Part shown: positions 17,127 to 64,000 of the stretch, one piece after another
Layout: each line of letters starts with the position of its first letter
Position numbering within the stretch: position 1 is the first letter of the stretch
Assembly (NCBI GenBank): GCA_964016885.1
Contig: OZ024742.1
Coordinates: 60,078,001-60,142,000 of the forward strand
Length of the DNA stretch: 64,000 nucleotides
Direction of reading: 5' to 3'
Origin: Eledone cirrhosa
Taxonomy: Eukaryota
The notes under the pieces: generated by a model
Seen by the model: the letters and a program-made list of their open reading frames with translations, nothing else
Database searches by the model: none
What the model was told of the DNA's origin: nothing
Made by a program: the position numbers and the translations under genes

Positions 17127-17603
17127 ATAATAATAAATTTGAAGACTAAAATCCAAAGAGGGCTCGATAAGGATAAATAAATTTTAGTCTACGACTTCAG
17201 TTATACCATTTACGTGGTTTTGTCTTTGCGTGCAATTGTTCTCCCCACTCCACATAATTACGTATTATCTTCGTGTTTTCCGTTCATTGCCAGAGAACGT
17301 CTCCATGAACCACCCAATCGAATATTAGTCTACGACTTCTTTTATACCATAAACGTGGTTTTGCCTTTGCGTGTAATTGTTTTTTTACCGCTCTAAATAA
17401 TGACGTATTATATTCATTTTTTCCCGTTCTTTGCCAGGGAACGTTTCCACGAACCAAAGTATCGTCTTCCTGTCTTCCTCCTGTTGCAACGTTTTTTGAA
17501 ATATTTACTACTGCGTTCACAGATTGATTTTTTAGTTTCAGAAGATCCTGTTAAGCGTGAAAGCAGCGATTCTTTGCTTAAATTTCAATCTGTTATTTTA
17601 ATA
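17122..17603. mobile_element. Family F PLE pseudo-LTR composite (inverted tail plus forward 3' end)
   Basis: 17122-17180 matches 60083-60140; 17183-17603 matches 61667-62078; HHR-like motif at 17534-17585. Confidence 0.85.
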
Positions 17604-17760
17604 TATATATATATACACACACACGGTAAAATATATGTGTGTGTATGTATATCATGAAAAAACACGTGAGAGAAATATAGGAAACAGAAATCTCGAAGGA
17701 CAAAAGCATATGGACAATTCCCGCTAATTGGCTGTCATCTGACTATCATTATAATTATAG

Positions 17761-18014: not shown

Positions 18015-19030
18015 ATCATCATCATCATCACGGGTTGTCCTGTTGTGGGCAGTGTCTGGTCGGCTGACCATGCCTTGTTCATACAGGAACTGATTTGGCT
18101 TGATTTCTACAGCCGGATGCCCTTCCTAACACCAACCTCATTTACAGTGAGTGCTGGGTGCTTTTTCGTGGTGCTTTTTCCTGTAACTGCCTGACAAGGA
18201 AGAGGGCATTAGTGGTGCCTCTTCCTGGTACAAACCCAAATTGCATCTCGTCTAGTTTCACCCGGTCCCTAATCAACTGTGCTATAACTCTTTCTGTTAC
18301 TTTCATGACCTGGTCCATCAGCTTTATACCTCTATAGTTTCCTCTATCTAGTGCATCACCTTTACCTTTGTAGCAGTGGACAATTATGCTGCTGCACCAA
18401 TCTTTTGGTATGACACCCTCTAGTATTACCTGGTTAACAATACGTGTGGTTATAGTGTGACCTACAGACCCAGATGCCTTCAGCATCTCGGCAGCTATAC
18501 CCGATGGACCGGTTGCCTTCCCCATCTTCATATCTTTGATTGCCTTACTTACTACGCTGATGCTGACTTGTACTGCTGGCCCCTCTATAGGGTCTACTTG
18601 GGGTAGGGTCTCTTCTTCCCATGCATTCTCCTCATTTAGTAATCTATCATAATGACTCTTCCATGCATCTTTCTTCTCAGCACTTGCGAGGGCAAGCTCA
18701 CCTTTATGATTCCGGATACATTTCTCTCCAATGACATCACAATTCTCTCTGACACACTGCCTCGCAATCTTGAACACCTCCTGTTTCTGGTCCTCACGTT
18801 GCAAAACATGCTTGAATTTTCTATCCTCTGCTTCCCTCCTAGCTAAGTATACTTGTCGCCTAGCTTCCCTCTTGGTCTCTATGTAATGTACCCTGCTCCC
18901 CCCGTTCTTCCATTCTTTCCATGCCTGTCTCTTGGCCTTATCTGCCTCATCTACCTTATTGTTTCACCACCAAGTCACTCTCATCCTGCTGGTGGTCTTA
19001 CTCCAGCCACAGATCTCATCCGTCGCCTCT
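18015..19030 (-). mobile_element. RTE-clade LINE fragment, 5'-truncated and internally deleted
   Basis: GKATGPSGI, YKGKGDALDRGNYRGIKL and QFGFVPGRGTT motifs; 3' UTR ggttggtgttaggaagggcatccggctgtagaaa; (GAT)n tail. Confidence 0.88.
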
Positions 19031-19093: not shown

Positions 19094-19521
19094 TAAATAT
19101 ACACGGGTGTGTATGATTGTGTATAGAAGATTATATTAATAAGAGGAATTCCAACTTTGTCTGATTTACTCGTTTTATTTACAATCCTTTAAAATATATA
19201 TAATATGGTATTATAATGAAATAGTATGATAGAATATTAAATTCTAAGTGTTAATTGAACAAGTACTTTCATGCTTTCGCAATCTTCAGGTTCATGATAT
19301 GTGGTGACAGTCGAGTTTGCAATTTTCAACAGTTGAAAATTGCAAACTCGACTGTCACCACATATCATGAACCTGAAGATTGCGAGAGCATGAAAGTACT
19401 TGTTCAATTAACACTTAGAATTTAACATTCTATCATACTATTTCATTATATATATTATATATATTTTAAAGGATTGTAAATAAAACGAGTAAATCAGACA
19501 AAGTTGGAATTCCTCTTATTA

Positions 19522-22155: not shown

Positions 22156-22161
<6 letters not shown>

Positions 22162-22940
22162 GATAAGCAGAACAAGTAAAATTCAATCAATTTTTCAAAA
22201 TACATTAACAAATATAATATAAATATTTACCTCTTCTAGTGGCCCTTACTGATCAGTTTCGCTTTGTAAAACCTCATAAATCCGATGATTTATGATGGAA
22301 AACCAAAGCTCATCAGAGAAGCATTTTCCCTTCCTAGGGCTAAACGTCCCAGGAACGACAAAATATACAACCTCCTGCCAGCTAATAAAGGTCTGAAAGG
22401 TCGTAAAATTGACCCGTATGTAAACTGGACCGAAGTAAAAGCGGGAAAATCAAAGACTTGCTGTCTACAATTACTACTAAAAAAATAGCAGCCAAGTAGA
22501 GCAACAGATTTGTTCTCAACGGACGGAGAAAATCTACTTGGCTGCTATTTTTTTAGTAGTAATTGTAGACAGCAAGTCTTTGATTTTCCCGCTTTTACTT
22601 CGGTCCAGTTTACATACGGGTCAATTTTACGACCTTTCAGACCTTTATTAGCTGGCAGGAGGTTGTATATTTTGTCGTTCCTGGGACGTTTAGCCCTAGG
22701 AAGGGAAAATGCTTCTCTGATGAGCTTTGGTTTTCCATCATAAATCCATCGGATTTATGAGGTTTTACAAAGCGAAACTGATCAGTAAGGGCCACTAGAA
22801 GAGGTAAATATTTATATTATATATTTTAATGTATTTTGAAAAATTGATTGAATTTTACTTGTTCTGCTTATCTTAATATTAAAGTTCTGGTGTATCAAAT
22901 TAACACCATTGAACAACCTTGAATCATAGACAACCTATGT
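22156..22940 (+). mobile_element. Fold-back element, family B (~345 bp arms, 32 bp spacer, 3' tail)
   Basis: Arms 22156-22500 and 22533-22878 are nearly identical; tail 22879-22940. Confidence 0.9.
22711..22792 (+). ncRNA. Type I hammerhead ribozyme (predicted), family B
   Basis: ttct CTGATGA GCTTTG..TCATAAATCC atc GGATTTATGA..CAAAGC GAA ACTGATCAGT A aggg. Confidence 0.8.
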
Positions 22941-23768: not shown

Positions 23769-26700
23769 TTACAGATATATACTCAGAGTAGGCCCATTCA
23801 CTCGGGCCATTCTTGCTTCTCTCACCCATCTTTCAACAAAATGCTGGGAAGAGAGCACTTCCCTCTCTACTCTGATTTTCCTTTTCAAATGAAATTTGAC
23901 AAAGTCAATCAGAGCATCACCGAAGAGGTAAGTGCTCGTCTTCAGCCCTTTCAAACGTGTCCACCATACTATCTCTTTCGCCATGGCCACCAGACAGATA
24001 AAAACTGCCTGCCCTTCCAGGCTAAAGGAGGAGGGCGGGGCAATCCTCACGATGGACTCAGATGATAGCCGGATCCGTCCTACACGCGACAGCAGGTGTT
24101 CGACTTAAACCCACAAGTCAGCAATTTTCGGACACTGGACGAGTGCGTGCAGGACGGTTTCGTCGTCCTGCACGCATCTCGGACATGCCCGGCTGACGGC
24201 ACCTCCATGGCTGTAGAGTTTATCCCGAACTGGCAAGGCTCCTCGGTAGCACTGCCAGGCCAGAGATTTCTGGAAGTTGTCCATAGGTCCCAGCTCGAAA
24301 GTTCCTCCGAAGAGATTGGCTAGTTGATTTTCGTCGTCGCCTAGAGTGTCCCCAAGTACGTCGTCGCTCTTCCCCTCCACTAATCCTCTATAGAACGCTG
24401 AGGTGGGGTTTCCACCGATCACATTGCCCGATTGGTCGAGGGCTGTGAGCGCCTGAAGATATTCCAGTCTCCAGGCGCTCCCTCTCTGTCTTCGCTTGAC
24501 CCAGGACTGCAGCTCCGTCAACGAAACGAGCTGGGGAAATACGTGTTTAGCAAACGGCGACCACACCTGATCACCGTCGAGGAAGAGGTTGAGATGTCGT
24601 AGCCTGAGCGCGTGTCTGCGCATCATCATCCACGGCATGCCCAGCCCTTAACGTAGTGGGTGTTGACAGCAGATGGACCGCCTGACCATGGGAGCGCGTC
24701 CCTTCCACAAAAAGCGAAAGAGCAAACGCTCCAGCGCAGTCAGGCGAGGCTTAGGACAAGGTACGACGGTCAGGCGGTAGCAGATGACAGACGCGATGTA
24801 CGCGTTAGCCACCTCCGCTCGACCTTTCAGGGATAGCTTCCACTCCGCCCATTTCTGGGTGAGAGAAGCCACCCTGCTCGTCACCTCGTCCCAGTTTTTG
24901 TCTGTCTGGAGGTCCGGACCGAACCAGACCCCTAGCATTTTAACCGGTCCGTCCGTCCAGCGTCCGGCGATGCTGTTGGACGGCATGGACCTGCCTCTCC
25001 AGGTGCCGAGCTGCAGGCCCACTGACTTTTCCTGCTTGATCATTGTTCCTGTCACCGCTTCGTATTCGACACCACTACAGTGATATCGTCCGCATATACT
25101 GACACGGATCTTCCGCATCCTAGTTCGCGTGGGACGCCCCTCAACGTCTCCAGTTTGTGCAGTAATGGCTCGAGAGTCAATACGTACAAGAGGGACGAGA
25201 GGGGACATCCTTGGCGGACCGAGCGCATGATGTTGAACGGTTCCGAAAGGTGACCGTGCACTCTCACCACAGAGCAGATGTCGCTGTGCATGGCAGCGAC
25301 CCAGCCTCTGAAGACGGGCCCAAAGCCAGCCGCCCTCAGGACTGCCGCTAGGTAACGATGGTCGACCCTATCGAAAGCTTTCGACTGATCTAAATTTATC
25401 AAGGACCCACCCGTGCCAGGTTCCCTAGCTACCCTCTCTACGATGTATCGCATGAGGTGGAGGTTGTCGGGGATGGATCTGTCAGGAATGGCGCATGTCT
25501 GCGCCTCTCCCACCAGACCACCAACGACAAGCGCCAGCTTCTTTGCTAGCACCTTGGCCAAAATCTTGAACTCTGTGTTTAGTAGAGTTATGGGCCTGAA
25601 ATTATCTATGTTATCCCCCTTTTTCGGATCCTTTCTCAGCAGTGCCACCGCTCCTCGGCTCACAGAGCTGGGAATTCTCCCATTCTGTTGCCAGTATCAG
25701 TAGACGTCCGCCAAGAGGCCTCCGAAAAAGTCTGGCATCTGTACGTAAATTTCATAGGGCAGACCATCCAAACCAGGCGATTTACCCCCTGTGCAGCCAG
25801 TCATTGCCTCCCGTACTTCAGTGGCTGTTATCGGCTTTTCGCAACACTCCGCCTCAGTGGCCGAGAGCCGCGGCAGTCCGTCGAGGTAGACACTAAAGTC
25901 CATCCCTCGACCCGGCCCACCGCTGCCCCCGAACAGCTGAGCGAAGTGTCGCTGAAAAGCTTCACACATTTGCCCGAGATCGAGTAGCATGCGCCCGTCG
26001 TGGATCCCAAAGACCGGATCGTGGCTTTGTTGCCACACCGCGCCTTCATCACTCGGGCCCATTGAACGGCTTTCGTCCCCTCGTGTCTGAGAGCACGCAC
26101 CCTAGCTCTGACAACGCAGCCTTCGTGCTTTGCATTGAAGAATTGGTCAAGGGCCAATTTCGCCGCAAGCACGTCGGTCGCGATGCCTTTGCTAAGCGCC
26201 TCGTCTAATTTTCTAACTAGCTCTCCCTCTGCTCAATTTTTCTCTATTGCTAAAGCCTTACTAAACATAATGGATTCTATTCTAATCGCTCTTTTCAGAG
26301 CAAACCACCACTTGTTGTTGACGATGGCCCCCGTCGACGCCCGCTTAACTAGTTCGCTAATCCGGTCTCTGTAGGCATTGCGCGCTGGTAAGGACGCGTT
26401 TATCTTCCAGTAGCCGGGTCCTCGTCTATGAAGCCTATCTAAGTCAAGCACACAGATCACGAATTTGTTGTCCGTGTAGCTGACTATCTTGAATTGTGGA
26501 CAGCCTATGCTAGACCTATCTATTTCCCTACAAAATACTCTATCTAGATATGATCTGGATGACACTATGCGATTTGTCCAAGTCCACATTGGCACATTTG
26601 GGAAATCCAATCGGTACCTGTCAGACAGTTCAAAACGACTGAGCAGGTTGGTGAGACTCTTGCGCCCTCCACCCTATCCGCTAATCCCACACAGTCCCAG

Positions 26701-27145
26701 CGTACATCTGAGATCCCGTTCCAGTCGCCCACTAACACTAAAGAGTGGGACGTTCCAAGAAAGGTCTCCAGACGCCGGAAGAAATCAGGCCGCCCTGCTC
26801 CTGTCGGGGCATAGACGGCCACTAGCCTGAAAGCTTGCCCATCTCCGCTGGTCACGTCCAGCACCACCAGCTTACCCTCTGGGACAGGAAGATGGCCCGT
26901 ATGGCGAGATTCAAACCTCTCCGAAAAAGCACAGCAACTCCTCCCCCCGATACAGGACGACTGGGAGATGCGTACACATCGTAGCCGCCGAAGATCGGTG
27001 CGAAGGCCCGTGCTTCGGAGATTCTGGTCTCGCTGATAGCCACTACATCTATGTTTAGTGACCTGAGGTCATTGAGCAGGTGATCCTCTTTCCATGACGA
27101 CCCCAAGCCACGCGCATTTATGCTGCCTATTCTGAGTGAGGTCAT
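23769..27145 (-). pseudogene. ORF2: AP endonuclease, RT and C-terminal zinc finger, with several frameshifts and stops
   Basis: SINARGL, ISET, VYAP, GDWN, SYLDR, GPGYWKIN, KSPGLDGLP, FRPITLLN, DQSKAFDRVDH, VRQGCPLS, YADD, CPRC...ETVLH...C. Confidence 0.92.
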
Positions 27146-29116
27146 GTTTAAAATGGAGTGGAAAAGATGGGAAAGACCACTTACTGTACTTTTCGTAGAG
27201 GAAGGATGGTCTCCATCCCTTTTCACTTGATCGTCTGGTGGAGGGACCGTTGAATCGTCCCTTCGGCTGGTCGTCGGCTCTTCTATGAGTATGTCCGAAT
27301 ATACTCTCCGGTTGAGAGTCCCTGCTAGGTCTCTGAAATCACCAACTGCGTTGGGGAATTTCGTTTTAATGTTTGTGTATTGTTTCTGTGCTATTTTTAG
27401 CAGTCTTATGTTCGTTGGTGTTTTGATTGGTGCTGGTATTATGTGGTCTTGCTGTGAAATGTCTGTGTGTTCAATTATGTAAGTCATTAGTTTCTTGTTG
27501 TGTGTATTTATTGCCGTGCATTTGATTTTCTGGGGGTGGGGTGTGGTTCTGCTATTTTCTTGTCGTTGTTGCTGGGTGTGTGTGTTTTGTTGTTGTGTTT
27601 GCGATGTTGGTGTTTGTGGTGGTGGTGTTGAAGATGTTTTTGTTGTTGGCGGTACGGTTGTCGCCGGTGCCGATGGTGGTGCTAGTGTGGGTGGTGATGA
27701 TGTTGGTGGTGTTGCTTCTGTGAGTCTCTTTGCAGTAGCCGTTACCCTTTTTTCATTTCTTTCCTCCCTTTTCGAAGGCGACGATGCGCTGCTTCTGCGT
27801 TTGTGCCTTCTTACGACCTCTTGCCATCCCTCTCCCACCTCACACTCCATGTCTGATTCTGTGAGGTCGGGGAGGGGTACCAGCTCTACTATTTCACTTG
27901 TTGTTGGTGATGTTTGCAGTGGAGTCTCTGTTGCAGGCGCATTTGGTATTACTGTTGTTGTTGTTAATACTGCCACTGATGCTGCTGTTCTTGATTTCCG
28001 TGGCGTGGGTATGGATGCCACGGACCTATCGTTCCTGCCTGCCGCCTGTCCTGTTGCTGGTAGCAGTGGAGCCGGTTTCGGAAGGAGGGGGGTTTTCTCC
28101 TTTCTCAGGGTCTTCTCGTTGCAGAAGGCCCTGAGGTAAGTCTTCGATCCACAGCGAAAGCATTTCGGGCGTCTGCCCTCAACACTTATGGGAAGTTGAG
28201 TGCCGTTATCGAAGTCTATCACATCCGGGATAGCTTCGATGCACTCCTGGTTGGTTTGTATTAATATCTCAATGGAGGTGCCGACCCAATCTTCTCTTAC
28301 TTTTTTCTGTACTTGCAGTACAGTTGTTTTGTCCTCGATTCCGACGAAGACAGACGCGGCCAGACAAGAAGGGGCCATCCCGGGGGGGAGGGGGGTCAGT
28401 TTGACCCTCACAATATTTTGCCCGCAGTAGGAGGGCACCAACACCATTTCCTCGCTCCTTAGGGTCACTAAGGATTGAGCTTTTGCCTCCTGGGGTGTGG
28501 CAAAAAGCACGTCTACGGTGGCATATTTCTTGCCTCGGGCGATATGCGTTTTTAGCTGCCACACAGACCCTAAGGCATTTTGTATTTCAGCCTCTGTGGC
28601 TCTTTCAACCCTACGGGATATTGTGCTTACTGTACGGTACGTGACCGTACAGTGCTGTTGGGTTCCGAAACATTTTTCGGCTGCCTTGCAGATTGCTCGG
28701 TGTCCGGTTTTCGTCACCATCTCCTTCGCTTCCTGTAATTCCTCATTTGTTATGAGGATGGTTTCCATGTTCTTTGCGATACCTGCAAACGAGATTGGTT
28801 TTTCTTTGCTGCTGTTGTTGTTGTTGTTGTTGTCGTCAGAGCTGCTGTTACTTTTGTTGTTGCTGCAGGTACTACGACTGCTGCCGCCGTCGCTGTTGCT
28901 GTGGTTGTTGTTGTTGCTGCTGCTGTTGTTGTTGTTGCTGCTAATGCTGTTGTTGTTTATGCTGCTGCTGATGCTGTTGCGGCTGCTACTGTTGTTATCC
29001 TTGTCACTGTTGCTGCTGCTGCTGTTATTACGGCTGCTACTGCTATTATTCATGACGTCAGACGAATGAAATGGGTTTTCGTATTTCCCGCACACCTTTT
29101 TCGTCGTTGTCGTCAT
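27146..29116 (-). CDS. LINE ORF1 (gag-like nucleic-acid-binding protein)
   Basis: Open frame; zinc knuckle CFRCGSKTYLRAFC (CCHC with H replaced by Y); N/S-rich N-terminus and P/T-rich region. Confidence 0.8.
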
Positions 29117-29498
29117 CGTCGTGGAGGAAATGTTGCACGCTTTGCACGTGATTTTTCTTTACTGGTGTCGCTTGCGAAATAGAAGGGAGGGAGAGAGACA
29201 ATCTTCTCTCTGCTGTAGTGACGATTGAGGAAGAAGAAGACGGAATGAGTGGGAGCGACTTGTGAAAATTCTTTTTCGTAGCCATGTTTTTTTTGTTTAA
29301 AATAAATATTGGGCGCAAAACCCCAATAAGCGATTATTTAACCCCGAAGGGCCAAATAACAGGCAGAAAGACCCATCTCACGAGGAGGAGGGTGTTTTTG
29401 TCTACAATTTGGTTAAAGTTTTAAACAATTTACAATTGTTATAGCGGTCAAAATTTACAATACCTTACAGAGCCGAGCCTCCGTCAACCATAGCATTC

Positions 29499-37355: not shown

Positions 37356-39159
37356 ATTATTGGATCCTCCTTTACTTTCTCCAGTCTTGGAGGCCTTGCG
37401 TAGGTTGAAGGGCACAGCTTTTCTCAATCTCAATATAACGAGCTCATTAATTTCGTGACACATGTTGAAGACTATATAATACAATAACATTATGAGGATT
37501 TTAGCAAGAAAGACTATATAGGCTAAATATCAGGAGTAACCTGTTTCACCCTTTCTACATTTAAGCAGAAAATGCCGTTGGGAATAATCTCCCCATGATT
37601 CGTGACTCTTCTCACGGCACATCACAACTGATTCAAACAGAGAGAGATGAGGAGAGAAAATGCAGACATCTGTTCTTCATAGCACATTATCGACATTTAA
37701 AAGATGAAAATAAACTTTCCCCGACAGAATCTGTCCTTAGAGGGCAGCAAGGCGAAATAAATAACGCAAGAGATTCTATTCGAGACCTTAACTACGTTGT
37801 AAATCCGTTGCCATTTTCCCGGCTAAATAGACTATGAAAATCCAATTGAGTTTGCAGGTTTTAATCAGTATAGCTACATTGAAAGATTAAGCAATTTAAT
37901 ATTTTAGACTAAAATCTTTTGACCGAGTTCGTAGAGCACTGGTCGACAGAAGTGAAATAAAGAAAGTTGTTAAGTGAAATATTAGGAAGATAAGAGGGAG
38001 TGAAATCCTTTAAAAATATAAGCACAGCACTTGGTTTTATATAGTATACTGCTCTTTTATAGCAATGAAAAGCAACGACAAAAAAGTAGATTAATAAATA
38101 TGGGGTACTGGCTTCAGGAAAAGATGAACAATACGAATATGTCTGCCATTTACCTTCATTTTGAATAAAACAAATATTTGTCTATCTTTAGAAATAAAAT
38201 AAAAGAGGAAAATGTTGGAGTGATTCAATGAAATGTGCTTGCAGTATTCCTGTAATCATGCAACTGTGTCATTTATATCCGGTTAAACCTTTTGTCTGCT
38301 CGAAAAGAACAGTTAAGTTTGTCTAAATTTTATTCAAGATGTATTGCAATTTACATTGTTAATTTGTATTTGCTGTATTGTTTACATATAGGTTGTTGTT
38401 GATGCTCTTGGTGATGGTGGAATAAAAAAAAGCAATTAAAGAAAAAACACGATAAATATCTTTCACCATATCTGTTTTGAAGCTGAATAAATATTCCCAA
38501 TAAACCAAACAAAAGACCGTATAGATTTTAAATAGGTTTTCTTTTCTTTTTCGTCATTTTTTTCTTCTGAAGTGGAATGGATTTTGTGAGATCATTTGAA
38601 AGGTATATTGTTATCATGTGGCTTTCTTCGATATAGATCTTTGTATATAATATGTAATAGAAATCTGAATATACCTACACATGTACAAATATAAGTATAT
38701 ATATACATGTATATACAAATATATATATATGTATATATGTAATGAAATGACAGGAGGCTGGATTTGTGTAAATCCTTGAAAGGTTTATTATACTATGATC
38801 ATTTCAATGACCGGGTTCCGTATGAATCCGGTGATATCATCAGGTATTCGAAATATAATACGTGAATGTAATAGGTAAAATCCATGGGGCTGAAAATCGA
38901 GACCCGAGGGCGACCGCTATTCTGTTCCTTCAACCTCAGCCGGTTCGAACTTTGGCTACCCGGTGTTTTCGCCTGGCCCTTTGCTACTCCCCTCACAGAA
39001 TATCCGAACTTCGACGAAACTCCACGGACTGGACCATAACATGTATTGTACTGCACTGAATTAACTAAATGGCTACCCTATACTTCTGGGCATGTATAAC
39101 TCACACTGAACTCCCAGACTCGAACACACACTGTTTCCACATCTATATGCATTATCTGA

Positions 39160-39865
39160 CTGCAACTTGAACTATATTGTATTTCTCCTGTGTCTTGAAC
39201 TCTCCATTTAATAGACAACGACTCTTGTTTGTTTATTTATATCTTTACATCTTTATTTGCTGTATTAATGCTCCTCCACGTATTCTACCTCTATACATCC
39301 ATGTACTTTCTACTTCCCTTATTCGGACTTTTACTCGCGTGTACCCTTAGCACTCGTCACTGGAATATTTCCCCCTGGGAACATAAATACCGCAACCTGA
39401 ACTATATTGTATTTCTCCTGTCTCTTGAACTCTACATTTACTAGACAACGACTATTGTTTGTTTATCTATATCTTCACATCTTTGTTTGCTGTATTAATG
39501 TCTTTCCACGTACTCTACCTCTATACATCAACGTACTTTTTACTCCCCTTATTCGGACTTTTACTCGCGTGCACCCTTAGCACACGACACAGGATTGCCC
39601 CCCCGGGAACATAAATACTGCAACCTGAACTATATTGTAATTCTCCTATGTCCTGATTTCTCCATCTTACTCCAACACCACTCTTGTTGGTTTATTTACA
39701 TGTTTATACCTATATATTGATATGTTTATATATTTATACCTCTGCTGTACCAATGTGCTCTTCCACGTATTCCACTTCTATGTATCCATGTATTTCTACT
39801 CCTCACATTGGGACCTGTACCCATTAGCACACGACACTAGAATGTCTCCTCCTGAGAACAATAAT
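39160..39865. repeat. Three diverged tandem copies of an ~230 bp unit
   Basis: gcaac.tgaactatattgta.ttctcct at ~39162, ~39392 and ~39620. Confidence 0.88.
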
Positions 39866-40101
39866 TAAACATTACACGACTATATCCCGTACTCTACATC
39901 CCACTAGGATAAATTACAGATCTACATAATACAATTAACGTTTCTTCATAAAAGACTATTTAATTAAACCCCGCAACCCAAAACCTCATAGAAGTTATTT
40001 GAATGTTTAATCTTCAATTTTCTGTTTGTTCAATTCTCAATCCTCTTACTCCTTAGTTTTATAATGTTATTCTGAATTCTTTCAACTTCATCCGATAGAG
40101 T

Positions 40102-41122
40102 TAAGCAAAATTATAAAGTTCCAACTTTCTGTCGGACCGTTGGGTGGGTTTTGGCGGCGGCGCGACCAGCTCCCTGGCGAACGGGCTCACCTTGAGTGCT
40201 TGGAAAAATAAATTTCCCCTTCTTTCGGTAAATGAAAATACTCGGCGTGGCTTAATTCGCCATGGGGCCCGGGGCGCGGCCGGTGTTTTAACCGCCAAAT
40301 AGTACCTTTAAATTACAGAACAAATCGGAACTATTATATATATCAACCTGAAACTGTTGAGCTTTAAATTTTCTAACCTCTTTAATATGGAATATTGATT
40401 ATTAATTTATTAATTTTTTAACTTCATCCTATAAGTCTAAACATTGTAACACACTGACCCCCAATATATTCACTTCTGCTAAGATGCGAGTCCCTGTGAA
40501 AATTTTGTCGCGCCACTCCTGGCCCGACTGTGGTGTGACATTAATATCGACCTTCCTTCCTCTCTCTTTCTATCTTCCTTCTTGTAGCTATCAACCATTA
40601 CTCTTTTACTTCTCTAAGCAAAATTTTAAAGTTCCAACTTTCTGTCGGACTGTTGGGTGGGTTTTAATGGCGGCGCGACCGGCTCCCTGGCGAACGAGCT
40701 CACCTGGAGTGCTTGGAAAAATAAATTTCCCCTTCTTTCAGTAAATGAAAATACTCGGCGTGGCTTAGTTCGCCATGGGGCCCGGGGCGCGGCCGGGGTT
40801 TTAACCGCCAAATAGTACCTTTAAATTACAGAATAAATCGGAACTATTATATAATTAAATGTTAAACTGTTGAACTTTAAATTTTCTAACCTCTTTAATA
40901 TTGAATATTGATTATTAATTTTTTTAACTTCATCCTAGAAGTCTAAACACTGTAAAACACTGACTCCCAATATATTCATCTCTGCTAAGATGCGGGTCCC
41001 TGTGAAGATTTTGTCCCGCCACTCCTGGCTTGACTGTGGTCTGACATTAATATCGACCTTTCTTCCTCTTTCTTTCTATCTTCCTTCTTGTAGCCATCAA
41101 CCCTTACTTTTCTACTTCTCTC
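40102..41122. repeat. Two tandem copies of an ~510 bp unit
   Basis: aaagttccaactttctgtcggac at 40115 and 40628; units align to their ends. Confidence 0.9.
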
Positions 41123-41508
41123 TTCCCATCCTTCTCTTCTCCCCTCCCCCTGTCTTCCTCCCGCAGACTTATCTTCCTTCCCCCTCTTGCTTGCCTATAT
41201 CTGACCAGTAGTAGTTGCCTTCCTCATTTAGCTGACATTAACCCTGGCTTCTCTTCTTCTTTCTTTCCCCTTCTTCTCTCTCCTTCCTTTCTTTCTTTCT
41301 TTTACCTTGTGTCAGGGGATCGACGTTAACCTATGCTCCCATCCCTTTCTGTTTTCGTTCATCTGACCGGTAGTAGCATACTGTAAAATTTAGCCACGTC
41401 ACTCCAGGGCGACCGGTTGAGGTTGAAGGAACAGAATAACGGTCGCCCTCGGGTCTCGATTTTCAGCCCCATGGATTTTACCTATTACATTCACGTATTA
41501 TATTTCGA

Positions 41509-41566
41509 ATACCTGATGATATCACCGGATTCATACGGAACCCGGTCATTGAAATGATCATAGTAT
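41509..41566 (+). ncRNA. Type I hammerhead ribozyme (predicted), family D
   Basis: atac CTGATGA t at.accgg...ccggt.at t GAA ATGATCAT A gtat. Confidence 0.78.
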
Positions 41567-42049
41567 AATAAACCTTTCAAGGATTTACACAAATCCAGCC
41601 TCCTGTCATTTCATTATAATATTTAACTCCGTAATAGCACCACCAACTACAAAAACAAAGACGGTTGAACTGCTTTACGTTGAGTACTCTCTATATTATT
41701 GCATTACGATTGACCATACGGAATAGACCAGCTCTATACAGTGGTGAACCTCAAACCTGAATATGTATATATGTATGTAGGTGTATGTATATATATCCGG
41801 TTAAACCTATGTATATGTATGAGTATATATATATATTAAAATGGATCCAATAAAAACCTATTAGACCTTTACTCACTAGTGTACTCAATACTTGTGGTAG
41901 TAGAGTGTGGTAATATGATAGATTCAAGACTCCGACGGCCGAGTTCCTGCCGTTTCAACGGCTAGTTCGGAACTAGCTGCTGAAACGGGAAACCGGAAAT
42001 AGCTTAGCCATCGGCTTCCCAACTCACACATCAATGCTTTTAACCGTGC

Positions 42050-44637: not shown

Positions 44638-45790
44638 AGTATGTATGTATACGTACATACATATATGTATACAGACGTACAGTAGTATGTATATATATAT
44701 ATACATACATGCACACATATATATATGCACGTATCTAGCAACCATATATATATGTACGTGTCTAGCAACCATCGTTGCTCATTTGTTCAACACTGATAAA
44801 GGAACGCTGTACTAATTTCAAGCTTATTAGCTATCGTCAGCAACGTATACCTTCCTGCCAGATGATTGAACGTCTGAAAGTATATACTTTCCTTATGCAT
44901 ATTAACGGCTGAGCAGCCTAATTTGCATATCGAGTGAGTTAATCGGCCGGGCGCACTGAAAACGATAAACGGAAAAAATGGAACGAAATTTCATTTCTCA
45001 CTCTTAGTACGGCTGTTACTTAAATATAAGTAAATATGTATACGTACATACATATATGTATACAGACGTACAGTAGTATGTATATATATACATACATGCA
45101 CACATATATATATGTACGTATGGATTCACCGAACATTTATTATAATGCTCCGTGTGTTTGTAAACAAACATCCCGTATTAAGCCGTACAGTGTCTAGCAA
45201 CCATCGTTGCTCATTTGTTCAATACTGACAAAGGAACGCTGTACTAGTTTCAAGCTTATTAGCTATCGTCAGCAACGTATACCTTCCTGCCAGATGATTG
45301 AAGTAACAGCTGTACTAAGAGTGAGAAATGAAATTTCGTTTCATTTTTTGCGTTTATCGTTTTCGGGGCGCCCGGCCGATTAACTCACTCGATATGGAAA
45401 TTAGGCTACTCAGCCATTAATATGCATAAGGAAAGTATATACTTTCAGACGTTCAACCATCTGGCAGGAAGTTATACGATGCTGACGATAGCTAATAAGC
45501 TCGAAACTAGTACATCGTTCCTGTGTCAGTGTTGAACAAAAAGGTGACGTGTTGCCTAAACACTGTACGGCATAATTCGGGCTGTTTATTTGTTTACAAA
45601 CAAACCGAGCATTATAACAAATGTTCGGTAAACCGATACATGCATATATATATCTGTGCATGTATTTATATATATATACATACTACTGTACGTCTGTATA
45701 CATATATGTATGTACGTATACATACATACATACTTACATTTAAGTAACTGCCGTACTAAGAGTGAGAAATGAAATTTCGTTTCATTCTAT
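44636..45790. mobile_element. Family R: tandem plus inverted ~435 bp hammerhead-bearing monomers (retrozyme-like)
   Basis: Minus-strand units 44636-45300 with HHRs 432 bp apart, then plus-strand units 45301-45790 with a 441 bp period. Confidence 0.85.
45476..45518 (+). ncRNA. Type I minimal hammerhead ribozyme (predicted), family R
   Basis: acgatg CTGACGA t AGCT aata AGCT c GAA ACTAGT A catcgt. Confidence 0.82.
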
Positions 45791-45814
45791 TCCATTTAAA
45801 TATATATAAATATA

Positions 45815-46019
45815 TAGTAATAATAATAAATGTGAAGACTAAAATCCCAAGGGGTCTCGATAAGGATGAATATATATCAGATATATAAGAACCCTAGTGC
45901 AAATATTTATTGAAATAACAGATTAAGGTTTAAGCAAATAATCGCTGCTTTCACCCTTAACGTTAAGGGTGAAAGCAGCGATTCTTTGCTTAAACTTTAA
46001 TCTGTTATTTTAATAAATA
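45815..46019 (-). mobile_element. Family F copy folded back at the HHR stem II loop
   Basis: Palindrome centred on cccttaac|gttaaggg (45961/45962). Confidence 0.85.
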
Positions 46020-46045: not shown

Positions 46046-47349
<1,304 letters not shown>

Positions 47350-49913: not shown

Positions 49914-49954
<41 letters not shown>

Positions 49955-49959
<5 letters not shown>

Positions 49960-50160
49960 ATAATAATAAATTTGAAGACTAAAATCCAAAGAGGGCTCGA
50001 TAAGGATAAATATATATCAAATATATAAGAACCGTAGAGCAAATATTTATTAAAATAACAGATTAAAGTTTAAGCAAAGAATCGCTGCTTTCACCCTTAA
50101 CGGGATCTTCTGAAACTAACAAAGTCAATCTGTAAACGCAGAAGTGGATATTTCAAAAAA
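49955..50160 (-). mobile_element. Family F pseudo-LTR, single arm with tail
   Basis: Matches 60083-60282. Confidence 0.88.
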
Positions 50161-59951: not shown

Positions 59952-60283
59952 AAATATAAATAAATATATATATATATATATATATATATTTATTTATATA
60001 ACTTGCAATGTTTATGTGCATGCAATATATATATATATTGCATGCAGAAAAACTTTTATATATATATATATATATAAATATATAGTAATAATAATAAATT
60101 TGAAGACTTAAATCCAAAGAGGGGTCGATAAGGATAAATATATATCAAATATATAAGAACCGTAGAGCAAATATTTATTAAAATAACAGATTAAAGTTTA
60201 AGCAAAGAATCGCTGCTTTCACCCTTAACGGGATCTTCTGAAACTAACAAAGTCAATCTGTAAACGCAGAACTGGATATTTCG

Positions 60284-61079
60284 AGCGTATTTTCAACGAC
60301 CATTCCACTTATTACAATGAAGCTCTTGCTCGAAGTGGATTTGTCGATAAGGTAGCATATACAGAGTACGAAAATAGACCTAGAAGAAATAGATCCCGTC
60401 GCATTTGTTGGTATATCCCACCATATAACATGGAGGTGGCCACACCATTAGCTAAGATCTTTCTTTCCATAATTACGTAGCATTTTCCCCCTACACATAA
60501 AATAGTAAAATTTTTAATAGAAATACTATTAAAATTTCTTACTCTACGACTCCTAACCTTGCACATAAGATCACAGCTTCAAATTTAGCTAAACTACCTA
60601 GCCGTAGGAACACGTGCAACCCTGTAGTTAGTAGTAACTGTAATTGTAGGAATCGGGTTGATTGCCCCCTATCCGGGAAATGCCTCTCTAGTAACATTGT
60701 CTACAAATGTAAGGTTGTAACACCCACGTCCCGTAGGGCCTACATAGGGTTAACTGCCAATAGATTCAAGCAGCGTCTTTACATGCATACCCATTCTTTT
60801 CGTTACCCTATATGAAGGAATATGACGTCACTTTCAGCTTATATCTGGAGTCTAAAAGACAACCACACCCAATATAAGTTACACTGGGAGGACCTAGCTA
60901 GGGCTAGATCGTATAACGGAAATAAAAGACCATGTGACCTCTGCGCCGCTGAGGCCCTGGAAATACTCTACGCCACAGACCACATCTTAAACAAAAAATC
61001 TGAGGCAATTTCGGCTTGTAAACAGAAATTGCACAAAACTTTCCTGTATTACAGCCCCACGTTATACCCTAACGGATAG
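60284..61079 (+). pseudogene. PLE RT C-terminus/linker and GIY-YIG endonuclease remnant
   Basis: WYIPPYN...HFPPTH..KIFNRNTIKISYS; CNCRNRVDCPLSGKCLSSNIVY...YIGLT..FKQR..H..SF; TSLSAYIWSLK; CDLC..E; LNKKSE. Confidence 0.9.
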
Positions 61080-62008
61080 TACGATCTATACGTGGATATT
61101 TTACGTCTCGATGTGGGAGCTAAGTATATGTTTTGTTTATACCTTTACTTATTTGCATAGGTAAGTATATATTATCCGTATATTTTGTGAAGGTACGTAT
61201 ACCTTCTCGTACGTATATCTGATTGTTATGGCGTATAATTTTTTTAATATATTCTGGTACATATGGTTCGGCTATGTGTATACGGGAGTTTTGCGTCTGT
61301 GTGAGTATGTAGGTTCGTACGTATGTAGGGCGTGTGTGTATGTGTACTTCATGTTTTGCTTGACTTACGTCTCAGAACACTCGTGTATTTACATGTGGGT
61401 ATGTGTGCGCGCTTGTTATATACGTATTTATTTATTTATATACGTTTATATAATTATTTTTTTATTGGTATACACGCTTACACACACACACATATTTACA
61501 TGTGCGTGGTTTTGTGTACCTATGGTAAGTAAATTTTTGCGTATGCTTGTGTATGTACGTATTTGTTTGCGTGTATGCATTTATTTATTTCTGTTACTTT
61601 TGTATTGTAATTATTTACTTTGTTCTTAACTCTGTAGCGGAGATTCATTCGGTCTCCTAGTTAGAATTTAGTCTACGACTTCTGCTATACCATTTACGTG
61701 GTTTTGTCTTTGCGTGCTATTGTTCTCCACGCAGCACATATGACGTATTATCTTCGTTAATTGCCAGAGAACGTCTCTATGCACCACCTAAGAGAACATT
61801 AGTCTACGACCTCTTTTATACCATAAACGTGGTTCTGTCTTTGCGCGTAATTGTTTTACACCGCTCCTATTAATGACGTATCTTATTTGTTTTTTTCCCG
61901 TTCTTCGCCAGCGAACGTTTCCACGAACCAAAGTATCGTCTTCCTGTCCTCCTCCGGTTGCAACGTTTTTTGAAATATGCAGTTCTGCGTTTACAGATTG
62001 ACTTTGTT

Positions 62009-62059
62009 AGTTTCAGAAGATCCCGTTAAGGGTGAAAGCAGCGATTCTTTGCTTAAAAT
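62009..62059 (+). ncRNA. Variant hammerhead (CAGAAGA core), family F
   Basis: agttt CAGAAGA t CCC gttaa GGG t GAA AGCAG cgattct TTGCT T aaa(c/a)t. Confidence 0.62.
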
Positions 62060-62079
62060 TTAATCTGTTATTTTAATAA

Positions 62080-62148
<69 letters not shown>

Positions 62149-62251: not shown

Positions 62252-62683
62252 TACAGGTACACATACATATATGCACGCATCAGTTTAGCGGACGCTTATT
62301 ATAACGCCGCTTTGTTCGTTTGTAAACAAACTGAACAGCCTGAATTTATGCCATACGGTGTTAAGGCAACCACGTCACCTTTTTGTTCAACACTGACACA
62401 GGAACGATGTACTAGTTTCAAGCTTGTTAGCTATCATCAGCACTGTATATCCATCTGCCAGATAGTTGAACGTTCGAAAGTATATACTTTCCTTATGAAA
62501 ATTAACGGCTGAGCAGCCTAATTTGCATATTGAGTGAGTTAAATCGGTCAGGCATACCGAAAACGCTAAGTTGAAATGAAATGAAAACGAAATTTTATTT
62601 CTCACTCTTAGTATGGCACTTACTTAAATGTAAGTATGTATTTATACGTACATACATATATGTATACAGACGTACAGTAGAAT

Positions 62684-62736
<53 letters not shown>

Positions 62737-63167
62737 GTGCATGCTACTGTACGTCTGTATACATATATGTATGTACGTATACATACATACTTACATTTAA
62801 GTAAGTGCCATCCTAAGAGTGAGAAATGAAATTTCGTTTTCATTTCATTTCAACTTATAGTTTTCGGTATGCCTGACCGATTTAACTCACTCAATATGCA
62901 AATTAGGCTGCTCAGCCGTTAATTTTCATACGGAAAGTATATACTTTCGAACGTTCAACTATCTGGCAGATGGGTATACGGTGCTGATGATAGCTAACAA
63001 GCTTGAAACTAGTACATCGTTCCTGTGTCAGTGTTGAACAAAAAGGTGACGTGGTTGCCTTAACACCGTATGGCATAAATTCAGGCTGTTCAGTTTGTTT
63101 ACAAACGAACAAAGCGGCGTTATAATAAGCGTCCGCTAAACTGATGCGTGCATATATGTATGTGTAC

Positions 63168-63228
<61 letters not shown>

Positions 63229-63342
63229 TGCTACTGTACGTCTGTATACATATATGTATGTACGTATACATACATACTTACATTTAAGTAAGTGCCATAC
63301 TAAGAGTGAGTAATGAAATTTCGTTTTCATTTTATTTCAACT

Positions 63343-63710: not shown

Positions 63711-63780
63711 TATATAAATAAATAAATATATATATATATATATATAAATATATATAAATAAATAAATATATATATATATA

Positions 63781-64000
63781 TAGTAATAATAATAAAATTG
63801 AATACTAAAATCCAAAGAGGACTCGATAAGGATAAATATATATCAAATATATAAGAACCGTAGTGCAAATATTTATTAAATAACAGATTAAAGTTTAAGC
63901 AAAGAATCGCTGCTTTCAACCTTAAAGGGATCTTCTGATTGCAACGTTTTTTGAAATATCTAGTTCTGCGTTTACATATTGATTTTGTTAGTTTCAGAAG
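63781..64000. mobile_element. Family F fold-back, running off the window end
   Basis: 63781-63938 is the tailed arm; 63939-64000 switches strand and matches 61958-62019. Confidence 0.85.

Follow-up and report, generated by a model that had tools for sequence, protein, structure and literature searches.

Two-ended insertions of a Penelope-like retrotransposon (PLE) family in Eledone cirrhosa carry two different 3' ends, one long (L) and one short (S), in 89 of the 95 cases counted. We have found this family in a window of 64,000 nucleotides (the whole stretch that was analyzed, contig OZ024742.1, positions 60,078,001 to 60,142,000), where the insertion at 60082-62083 is almost certainly a dead, 5'-truncated and broken copy of a young and abundant PLE of the Hydra clade, located in a (TA)n tract. 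The locus is in itself ordinary; what lifts it above that level is an end pairing that is near-strict, a long tail and an altered hammerhead. Judging from the sequence, the best explanation of the whole is probably a 5'-truncated Hydra PLE in (TA)n together with two cDNAs that one complex would have primed at S and L.

The origin of inverted pLTRs and one-sided tails in PLEs has been named an open problem (Craig et al., 2021, PMC8557442), and the parts of the PLE literature that we drew on put the tail "often" on one end. New here is the one-sided tail counted, with controls, as a near-strict rule. No comparable count of end pairing was found in aimed searches of the literature available as full text, which leaves out subscription papers such as Arkhipova (2006), and the rule may be known.

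The insertion at 60082-62083 and its family

The (TA)n tract abuts both outer ends of the insertion, whose features are collected in Table 1 together with the other copies of the family in the window. A masked self-BLAST aligned 60171-60282 with 61972-62083 as reverse complements over 112 bp at 98.2% identity, confirming what an earlier note on this DNA had described: inverted arms of a terminus that it called family F, bracketing a Penelope-like ORF remnant. The arms are unequal, the left one extending 89 nt further to reach 60082. The 3' end proper to the element forms the right arm; the left one is formed by a further 3' end, inverted, 5'-truncated and provided with the 89-nt tail. The idea that the arms were terminal inverted repeats that had captured the ORF had therefore to be abandoned. 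The ORF remnant (60282-61079) corresponds to nt 1332-2130 of an open 709-aa copy found elsewhere in the genome (96.9%, one 1-nt gap), and has an in-frame stop at 60813-60815. In translation, three short frames between the arms make up the end of the PLE protein; the first 18 codons of the listed 83-aa frame derive from the inverted arm and not from the gene.

Table 1. Features of the insertion at 60082-62083 and other copies of the family in the window
Feature	Position	Strand	Remarks
89-nt tail ending at the long (L) 3' terminus	60082..60170	-	leader between pLTR and ATG in full-length tandem copies; L end 42 nt before ATG
Left arm, inverted, 5'-truncated pLTR end	60171..60282	-	reverse complement of 61972-62083
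Antisense type I hammerhead-like motif	60195..60245	-	all modelled pairs standard
Last 799 nt of the PLE ORF, about aa 445-709, with the end of the RT thumb, the linker and the GIY-YIG endonuclease	60282..61079	+	
Head-to-head junction, left arm / ORF remnant	60282		1-nt overlap
CxCX5C linker motif, Hydra diagnostic	60639..60665	+	from the translation; definition in PMC8557442
GIY-YIG core (IVY...YIG), lacking the cysteine pair that lies inside the CCHH motif	60696..60749	+	
3' UTR / pLTR region, ending at the short (S) terminus	61080..62083	+	
Internal duplication of about 130 nt inside the 3' UTR / pLTR region	61668-61730 ~ 61799-61861		
Hydra-type hammerhead-like motif, core CAGAAGA	62009..62059	+	sense to the ORF; one stem I mismatch
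Two-ended non-coding insertion, L + S	17121..17608		older, about 88% identity
Minimal two-ended insertion, L + S ("tiny palindrome")	45814..46019		
Single-ended, 5'-truncated copy ending at L	49954..50160	-	
Two-ended insertion, L + S	63780..64000		S end at 64063, beyond the window edge, read in locus L149

As had been noted earlier, the terminus is also present in the window alone (49954-50160), as a tiny palindrome (45814-46019) and as composites (17121-17608 and 63780-64063); the masked self-BLAST placed the related pieces at 17123, 45810, 49957 and 63783. The four two-ended copies in the window are all of the L+S type. With their inverted ends and TA flanks, the short palindromes and composites have a MITE look.

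The family was then followed in the 3.0 Gb genome by scoring 40 of 722 first-look terminus candidates and 40 of 2034 ORF-start candidates; all loci are top-scoring matches and not a random sample, and the copy number of the family is a lower bound only. The earlier note had tied the non-coding fold-backs to a PLE, a link that ORF copies elsewhere without the family F terminus could have contradicted. We found the terminus 3' of the ORF, in sense orientation, in 28 of the 29 other ORF copies, and the link stands. These other copies carry the ORF 1331 nt further upstream than the window junction, and in locus L063 a direct, 5'-truncated pLTR continues through the leader into the ATG. The extension to a full RT plus GIY-YIG ORF that had been proposed also succeeded: open ORFs of 708-710 aa, with YRDD and YIG, were present at 6 of 38 loci chosen by ORF start, and open ORFs within about 700-720 aa at 27 of 53 loci chosen by protein score, both sets being biased toward intact copies.

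Pfam and PDB sequence searches gave nothing significant for either the remnant or the full ORF. An AlphaFold2 model of the ORF built on 117 sequences (pLDDT 93) had telomerase RTs as its best fold matches (E 1.6e-8), the top six being TERT structures. A single ORF thus joins a telomerase-like RT to a C-terminal GIY-YIG endonuclease, as in EN+ PLEs, and the anatomy is that of a PLE as well, with a partial-tandem pLTR, an inverted 5' copy and a tail. Among PLEs, inverted pLTRs that carry a tail on one side have been described before (PMC8557442, PMC3846280); the family F terminus is a PLE pLTR plus tail, an architecture already known.

Capture of a PLE fragment by the terminal inverted repeats of an independent MITE or fold-back DNA transposon would suit the MITE-like short copies, with their inverted ends and TA flanks, but is extremely improbable, because the terminus is colinear with the 3' end of the ORF in the same 28 of 29 copies and runs into the ATG in tandem copies, and because junctions and arm lengths vary in every insertion. 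We rejected a MITE or TIR DNA transposon on the ends, which are unequal by 89 nt, and on the internal structure, which is not constant. For annotation, a class of MITE-like palindromes in this genome is explained as PLE products. One of the minimal L+S insertions, of 144 bp, forms a head-to-tail tandem array of at least 4 units (locus L321 1341-1954, G000:C7, ~62.727 Mb), which is a satellite born from a PLE end.

Concerning the clade, Hydra PLEs are defined by RWK, DKT, a CxCX5C linker, absence of CCHH, CxxC before a conserved E and CxH after a conserved N, and (TA)n targets (PMC8557442). The CxCX5C linker is found at 60639-60665 of the window and in 112 of 120 homologues. DKT replaces DKG in the ORF (DK[TS] in 118/120), RWK is present as the variant RWR (RW[KR] in 110/120), and both CxxC before the conserved E (118/120) and CxH after the conserved N are found in the ORF. 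A CCHH-type pattern was absent from the ORF and from all 120 homologues, and so was the CX2-5CxxC zinc-finger linker of Nematis and Neptune. Since a CxCX5C linker without CCHH indicates Hydra and not Nematis, whose PLEs have both CX2-5CxxC and CCHH, the "Nematis-type" label of the earlier note fails and the Nematis assignment was rejected. By its motifs, this appears to be a new family of the known Hydra clade. In a protein search for a second Hydra family, the top matches, where checked, were this same family. A 604-aa RT frame of a different PLE-like family adjoins one copy (locus L078, minus strand, frame from 3838).

The rest of the window is rich in other elements. The only host gene seen among the repeats is a 427-aa single-frame rhodopsin-family G-protein-coupled receptor at 11371-12654 on the minus strand (PF00001, E 4e-25). 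A broken non-LTR retrotransposon, which we take to be L1/Tx1-like, occupies 24105-29158 on the minus strand, where endonuclease-like and RT pieces (RVT_1, E 2e-24) come after a 768-aa frame. A second non-LTR RT remnant, presumably RTE-like, lies at 18142-18963 (minus strand, weak RVT_1), and similar frames flank loci L067, L070 and L080. At 40102-41121 there is a 514-bp tandem duplication (91%) within 38741-41615, a segment with 204-bp inverted repeats (99%) at its ends. Fold-backs of unrelated families, near-perfect and often located within TA tracts, were seen at 46049-47137, 22161-22873, 8655-9025, 19143-19515, 62256-63341 and 44754-45798; they may be two-ended products of other PLE families.

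Two 3' ends and the pairing rule

Copies of the family have two main 3' ends, S and L, which in the tandem copy lie 131 and 42 nt ahead of the ATG with a spacing of 89 nt, besides a rare middle end. Both S and L end in TAT followed by (TA)n. A TA flank was found at 216 of 236 termini versus 39 of 142 other ends, in line with the (TA)n insertion typical of Hydra. Target-site duplications are unreadable within (TA)n.

Among 189 complete insertions, 69 had two outward-facing termini: 66 were L+S, one LL, one SS and one L plus the middle end. In the sets not selected on end type, L+S made up 55 of the 57 L/S pairs (p 1e-14 against 50%), the expectation of 50% coming from the single-ended copies of these sets, which use L and S about equally (39 L, 40 S). 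In a held-out set of 53 loci, 23 of 26 two-ended insertions were L+S, with 12 L and 25 S among the single-ended ones. The six exceptions in the pooled 95 are two LL, one SS and three with a middle end, one of these (L128) turning out to be an S end when inspected. The L+S rule also holds for four very short second arms detected among 98 single-ended copies. These counts, made in this one family, leave out insertions less than 60 nt from a locus edge, matches shorter than 35 nt or below 80% identity, and insertions without a recognised terminus (22/189 in the main set, 8/71 in the held-out set).

As a control we took tail-to-tail neighbours across a short TA tract. The raw matches were 23 of L with S, 34 of S with S and 102 of L with L, the latter two counted partly on both strands and the L with L pattern being less specific; there was no preference for L with S. 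The pairing rule is therefore specific to the ends of one insertion. Short inverted or duplicated pieces of the L end are found just outside some termini (flanks of L234, L154 and L129); together with the excess of L with L neighbours, they may reflect repeated priming at L.

The same neighbours bear on self-priming, in which an RNA 3' end at L would snap back and prime at S, the resulting L-to-S hairpin being later opened and inserted. Such a reaction would force L+S pairing, and it is a variant of an idea put forward for the Penelope elements of rotifers (Arkhipova et al., 2013, PMC3846280). We hold it to be very unlikely. None of the 23 tail-to-tail matches of L with S is directly joined, S with S and L with L neighbours are at least as common, and sense self-priming predicts tail-to-tail and not head-to-head structures (PMC3846280). 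The direct snap-back was rejected, since a TA-rich spacer is present in all 23.

How the two ends may arise

Near-strict L+S pairing in two-ended copies, together with the controls, excludes independent priming and plain copy-back and indicates a coupling, in which each of the two sites serves once whenever both strands are primed. We lean towards target-primed reverse transcription on both strands, begun at two non-equivalent sites of a single complex, as the likely source of this pairing. The transcript would be a partial tandem (pLTR-leader-ORF-pLTR), the GIY-YIG domain would nick both strands of (TA)n, and each 3'-OH would prime reverse transcription after a TAT able to pair with the target. 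S and L would be occupied non-redundantly, as for a protein dimer with one RT per site, which seems the simplest account of the coupling. Each cDNA would halt at a variable point and the two would be joined head to head through a microhomology of 1-5 nt, while a single surviving priming would leave a single-ended S or L copy. The palindromes and composites of the window would be short products of the same reaction and not a separate MITE family.

A purified protein of this type has been studied in the anole Poseidon element, where it cleaves and extends both strands, two internal start sites delimit the tail and a dimer is predicted (PMC11167929). In that assay the start site was the same for both strands and was not homologous to the cut DNA, which counts against the proposal by analogy, as the strict pairing and the TAT ends found here are unlike it.

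The arms and their junctions provide further evidence. The parts shared by both arms differ by 2.3% within and 4.2% between insertions, the value within being lower in 40 of 45. Minor alleles of L arms recur in their own S arm in 58 of 147 cases versus 175 of 3827 in the S arms of other insertions, and 11 of the 37 alleles seen in only two arms sit within one insertion. This similarity could also stem from gene conversion between inverted repeats or from shared age. Exact scoring was possible at only 20 of the 53 simple junctions, two of which carry extra bases; an overlap of 1-5 nt was found in 16 of the 18 that are not gapped, versus 44% by chance. The resemblance between the S and L start sites (TAT|TTG..CTC..CGGTT) ranks 1 of 3585 for one window, selected post hoc, and 4 to 66 for three others, and we treat it as a lead only. 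Folding the pLTR-leader region as RNA gave no improvement over shuffles (z +0.82).

Allele sharing between arms and a one-sided tail would also be accounted for if the unequal ends were made at the DNA level, a single cDNA acquiring its second arm by template switch or fold-back and keeping the tail after asymmetric resolution by the endonuclease. Asymmetric resolution is a reading of tails offered by Craig et al. (2021, PMC8557442), and both ends do lie in AT-rich sequence that an endonuclease could cleave. We consider this origin unlikely, because plain copy-back would be expected to give LL or SS ends with symmetric junctions, against the observed L+S excess and differing arm starts; besides, single-ended copies terminate directly against (TA)n at either of the two sites, and the tail ends of anole Poseidon map to RT start sites (PMC11167929).

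L1-style twin priming on one tandem transcript, at its 3' pLTR and at its 5' pLTR/leader, would make a dimer unnecessary. The microhomology at the junctions fits, and so do the full-length copies with a direct 5' pLTR and leader, which place both sites upstream of the ORF. This is less likely still: twin priming gives no reason for the near-absence of LL and SS; S and L terminate the longer arm equally often (28 and 25 of the 53 simple junctions); and several pairs of long arms are only 0.3% apart, although a source copy may carry two pLTRs that are not identical.

Priming at both strands from one complex has the advantage of being testable, as the L+S count yields a sharp in vitro prediction. 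With a young family, many open ORFs and a simple target, this element is suited to a first biochemical study of a Hydra PLE.

The hammerhead-like motif and known elements

The earlier note had pointed to a hammerhead-like motif co-oriented with the ORF, and one is indeed found at 62009-62059, sense to the ORF and with a layout that matches that of Hydra hammerheads (PMC8557442). Its core is CAGAAGA in 202 of 210 copies and CTGAAGA in one, a family-wide U4A change versus CUGANGA that is absent from all Hydra hammerheads listed in supplement S2 of PMC8557442. Rfam gave no hammerhead match in 61600-62085, and the best 150 of 277 matches in another Rfam scan were mostly microsatellite hairpins. 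The hammerhead fold has -4.8 versus -8.8 kcal/mol for the minimum-energy fold. By these counts U4A is fixed in a recently spread family, and the motif is a putative ribozyme. A U4C hammerhead has lower activity in vitro that is sufficient in vivo (PMC3088659); this passage was the only related one that a literature search returned, with no activity report for U4A hammerheads. Insertion did not depend on ribozyme cleavage in the anole Poseidon assay (PMC11167929).

A more general proposal, which we put forward tentatively and rate below even chances, is that Hydra PLEs integrate by a coupled two-ended reaction. A dimeric RT-endonuclease would sit on two repeated RNA docking sites 89 nt apart, cut both (TA)n strands and copy the template twice. 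In this view integration would normally yield inverted pLTRs, the tail would span the gap between the two active sites, and the family may have fixed a U4A hammerhead, dead or protein-dependent, while spreading.

Compared with described Hydra PLEs (PMC8557442), the family has in common all the listed protein motifs, the (TA)n targets and a hammerhead layout with U on each side of stem II. Hydra-1_Obim likewise has 709 aa and is homologous by eye over the 400 residues compared, and a 5'-truncated inverted copy has been noted at the 5' end of Penelope-13_HM, also of this clade (PMC8557442). The unit of about 3.3 kb is longer than the listed Hydra families, most of which are below 3 kb, because of its 1-kb 3' UTR. 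The hammerhead matches none of those listed for Hydra, RWR takes the place of RWK, and the tail has 89 nt versus the 30-40 bp given for PLEs (PMC8557442).

The Penelope elements of Adineta vaga (Arkhipova et al., 2013, PMC3846280) likewise have an inverted 5' pLTR, a tail on one inverted pLTR and head-to-head palindromes. They differ in their low copy number, a tail of 31 bp and readable target duplications of 8-10 bp, and we found no count of end pairing in the passages of that study that we drew on. The other close parallel is Poseidon_Ac (PAc) of the green anole (Frangieh et al., 2024, PMC11167929), a member of another clade. It also has two internal start sites bounding the tail and AT-rich targets, and carries a hammerhead in the pLTR where the present family has a hammerhead-like motif; both strands are cut and extended there, a reaction that the genomic copies would reflect here. 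The start sites of Poseidon_Ac are inside its ORF (+111 to +118), unlike those of the present family, which precede the ATG (-131 and -42), end in TAT and pair almost strictly.
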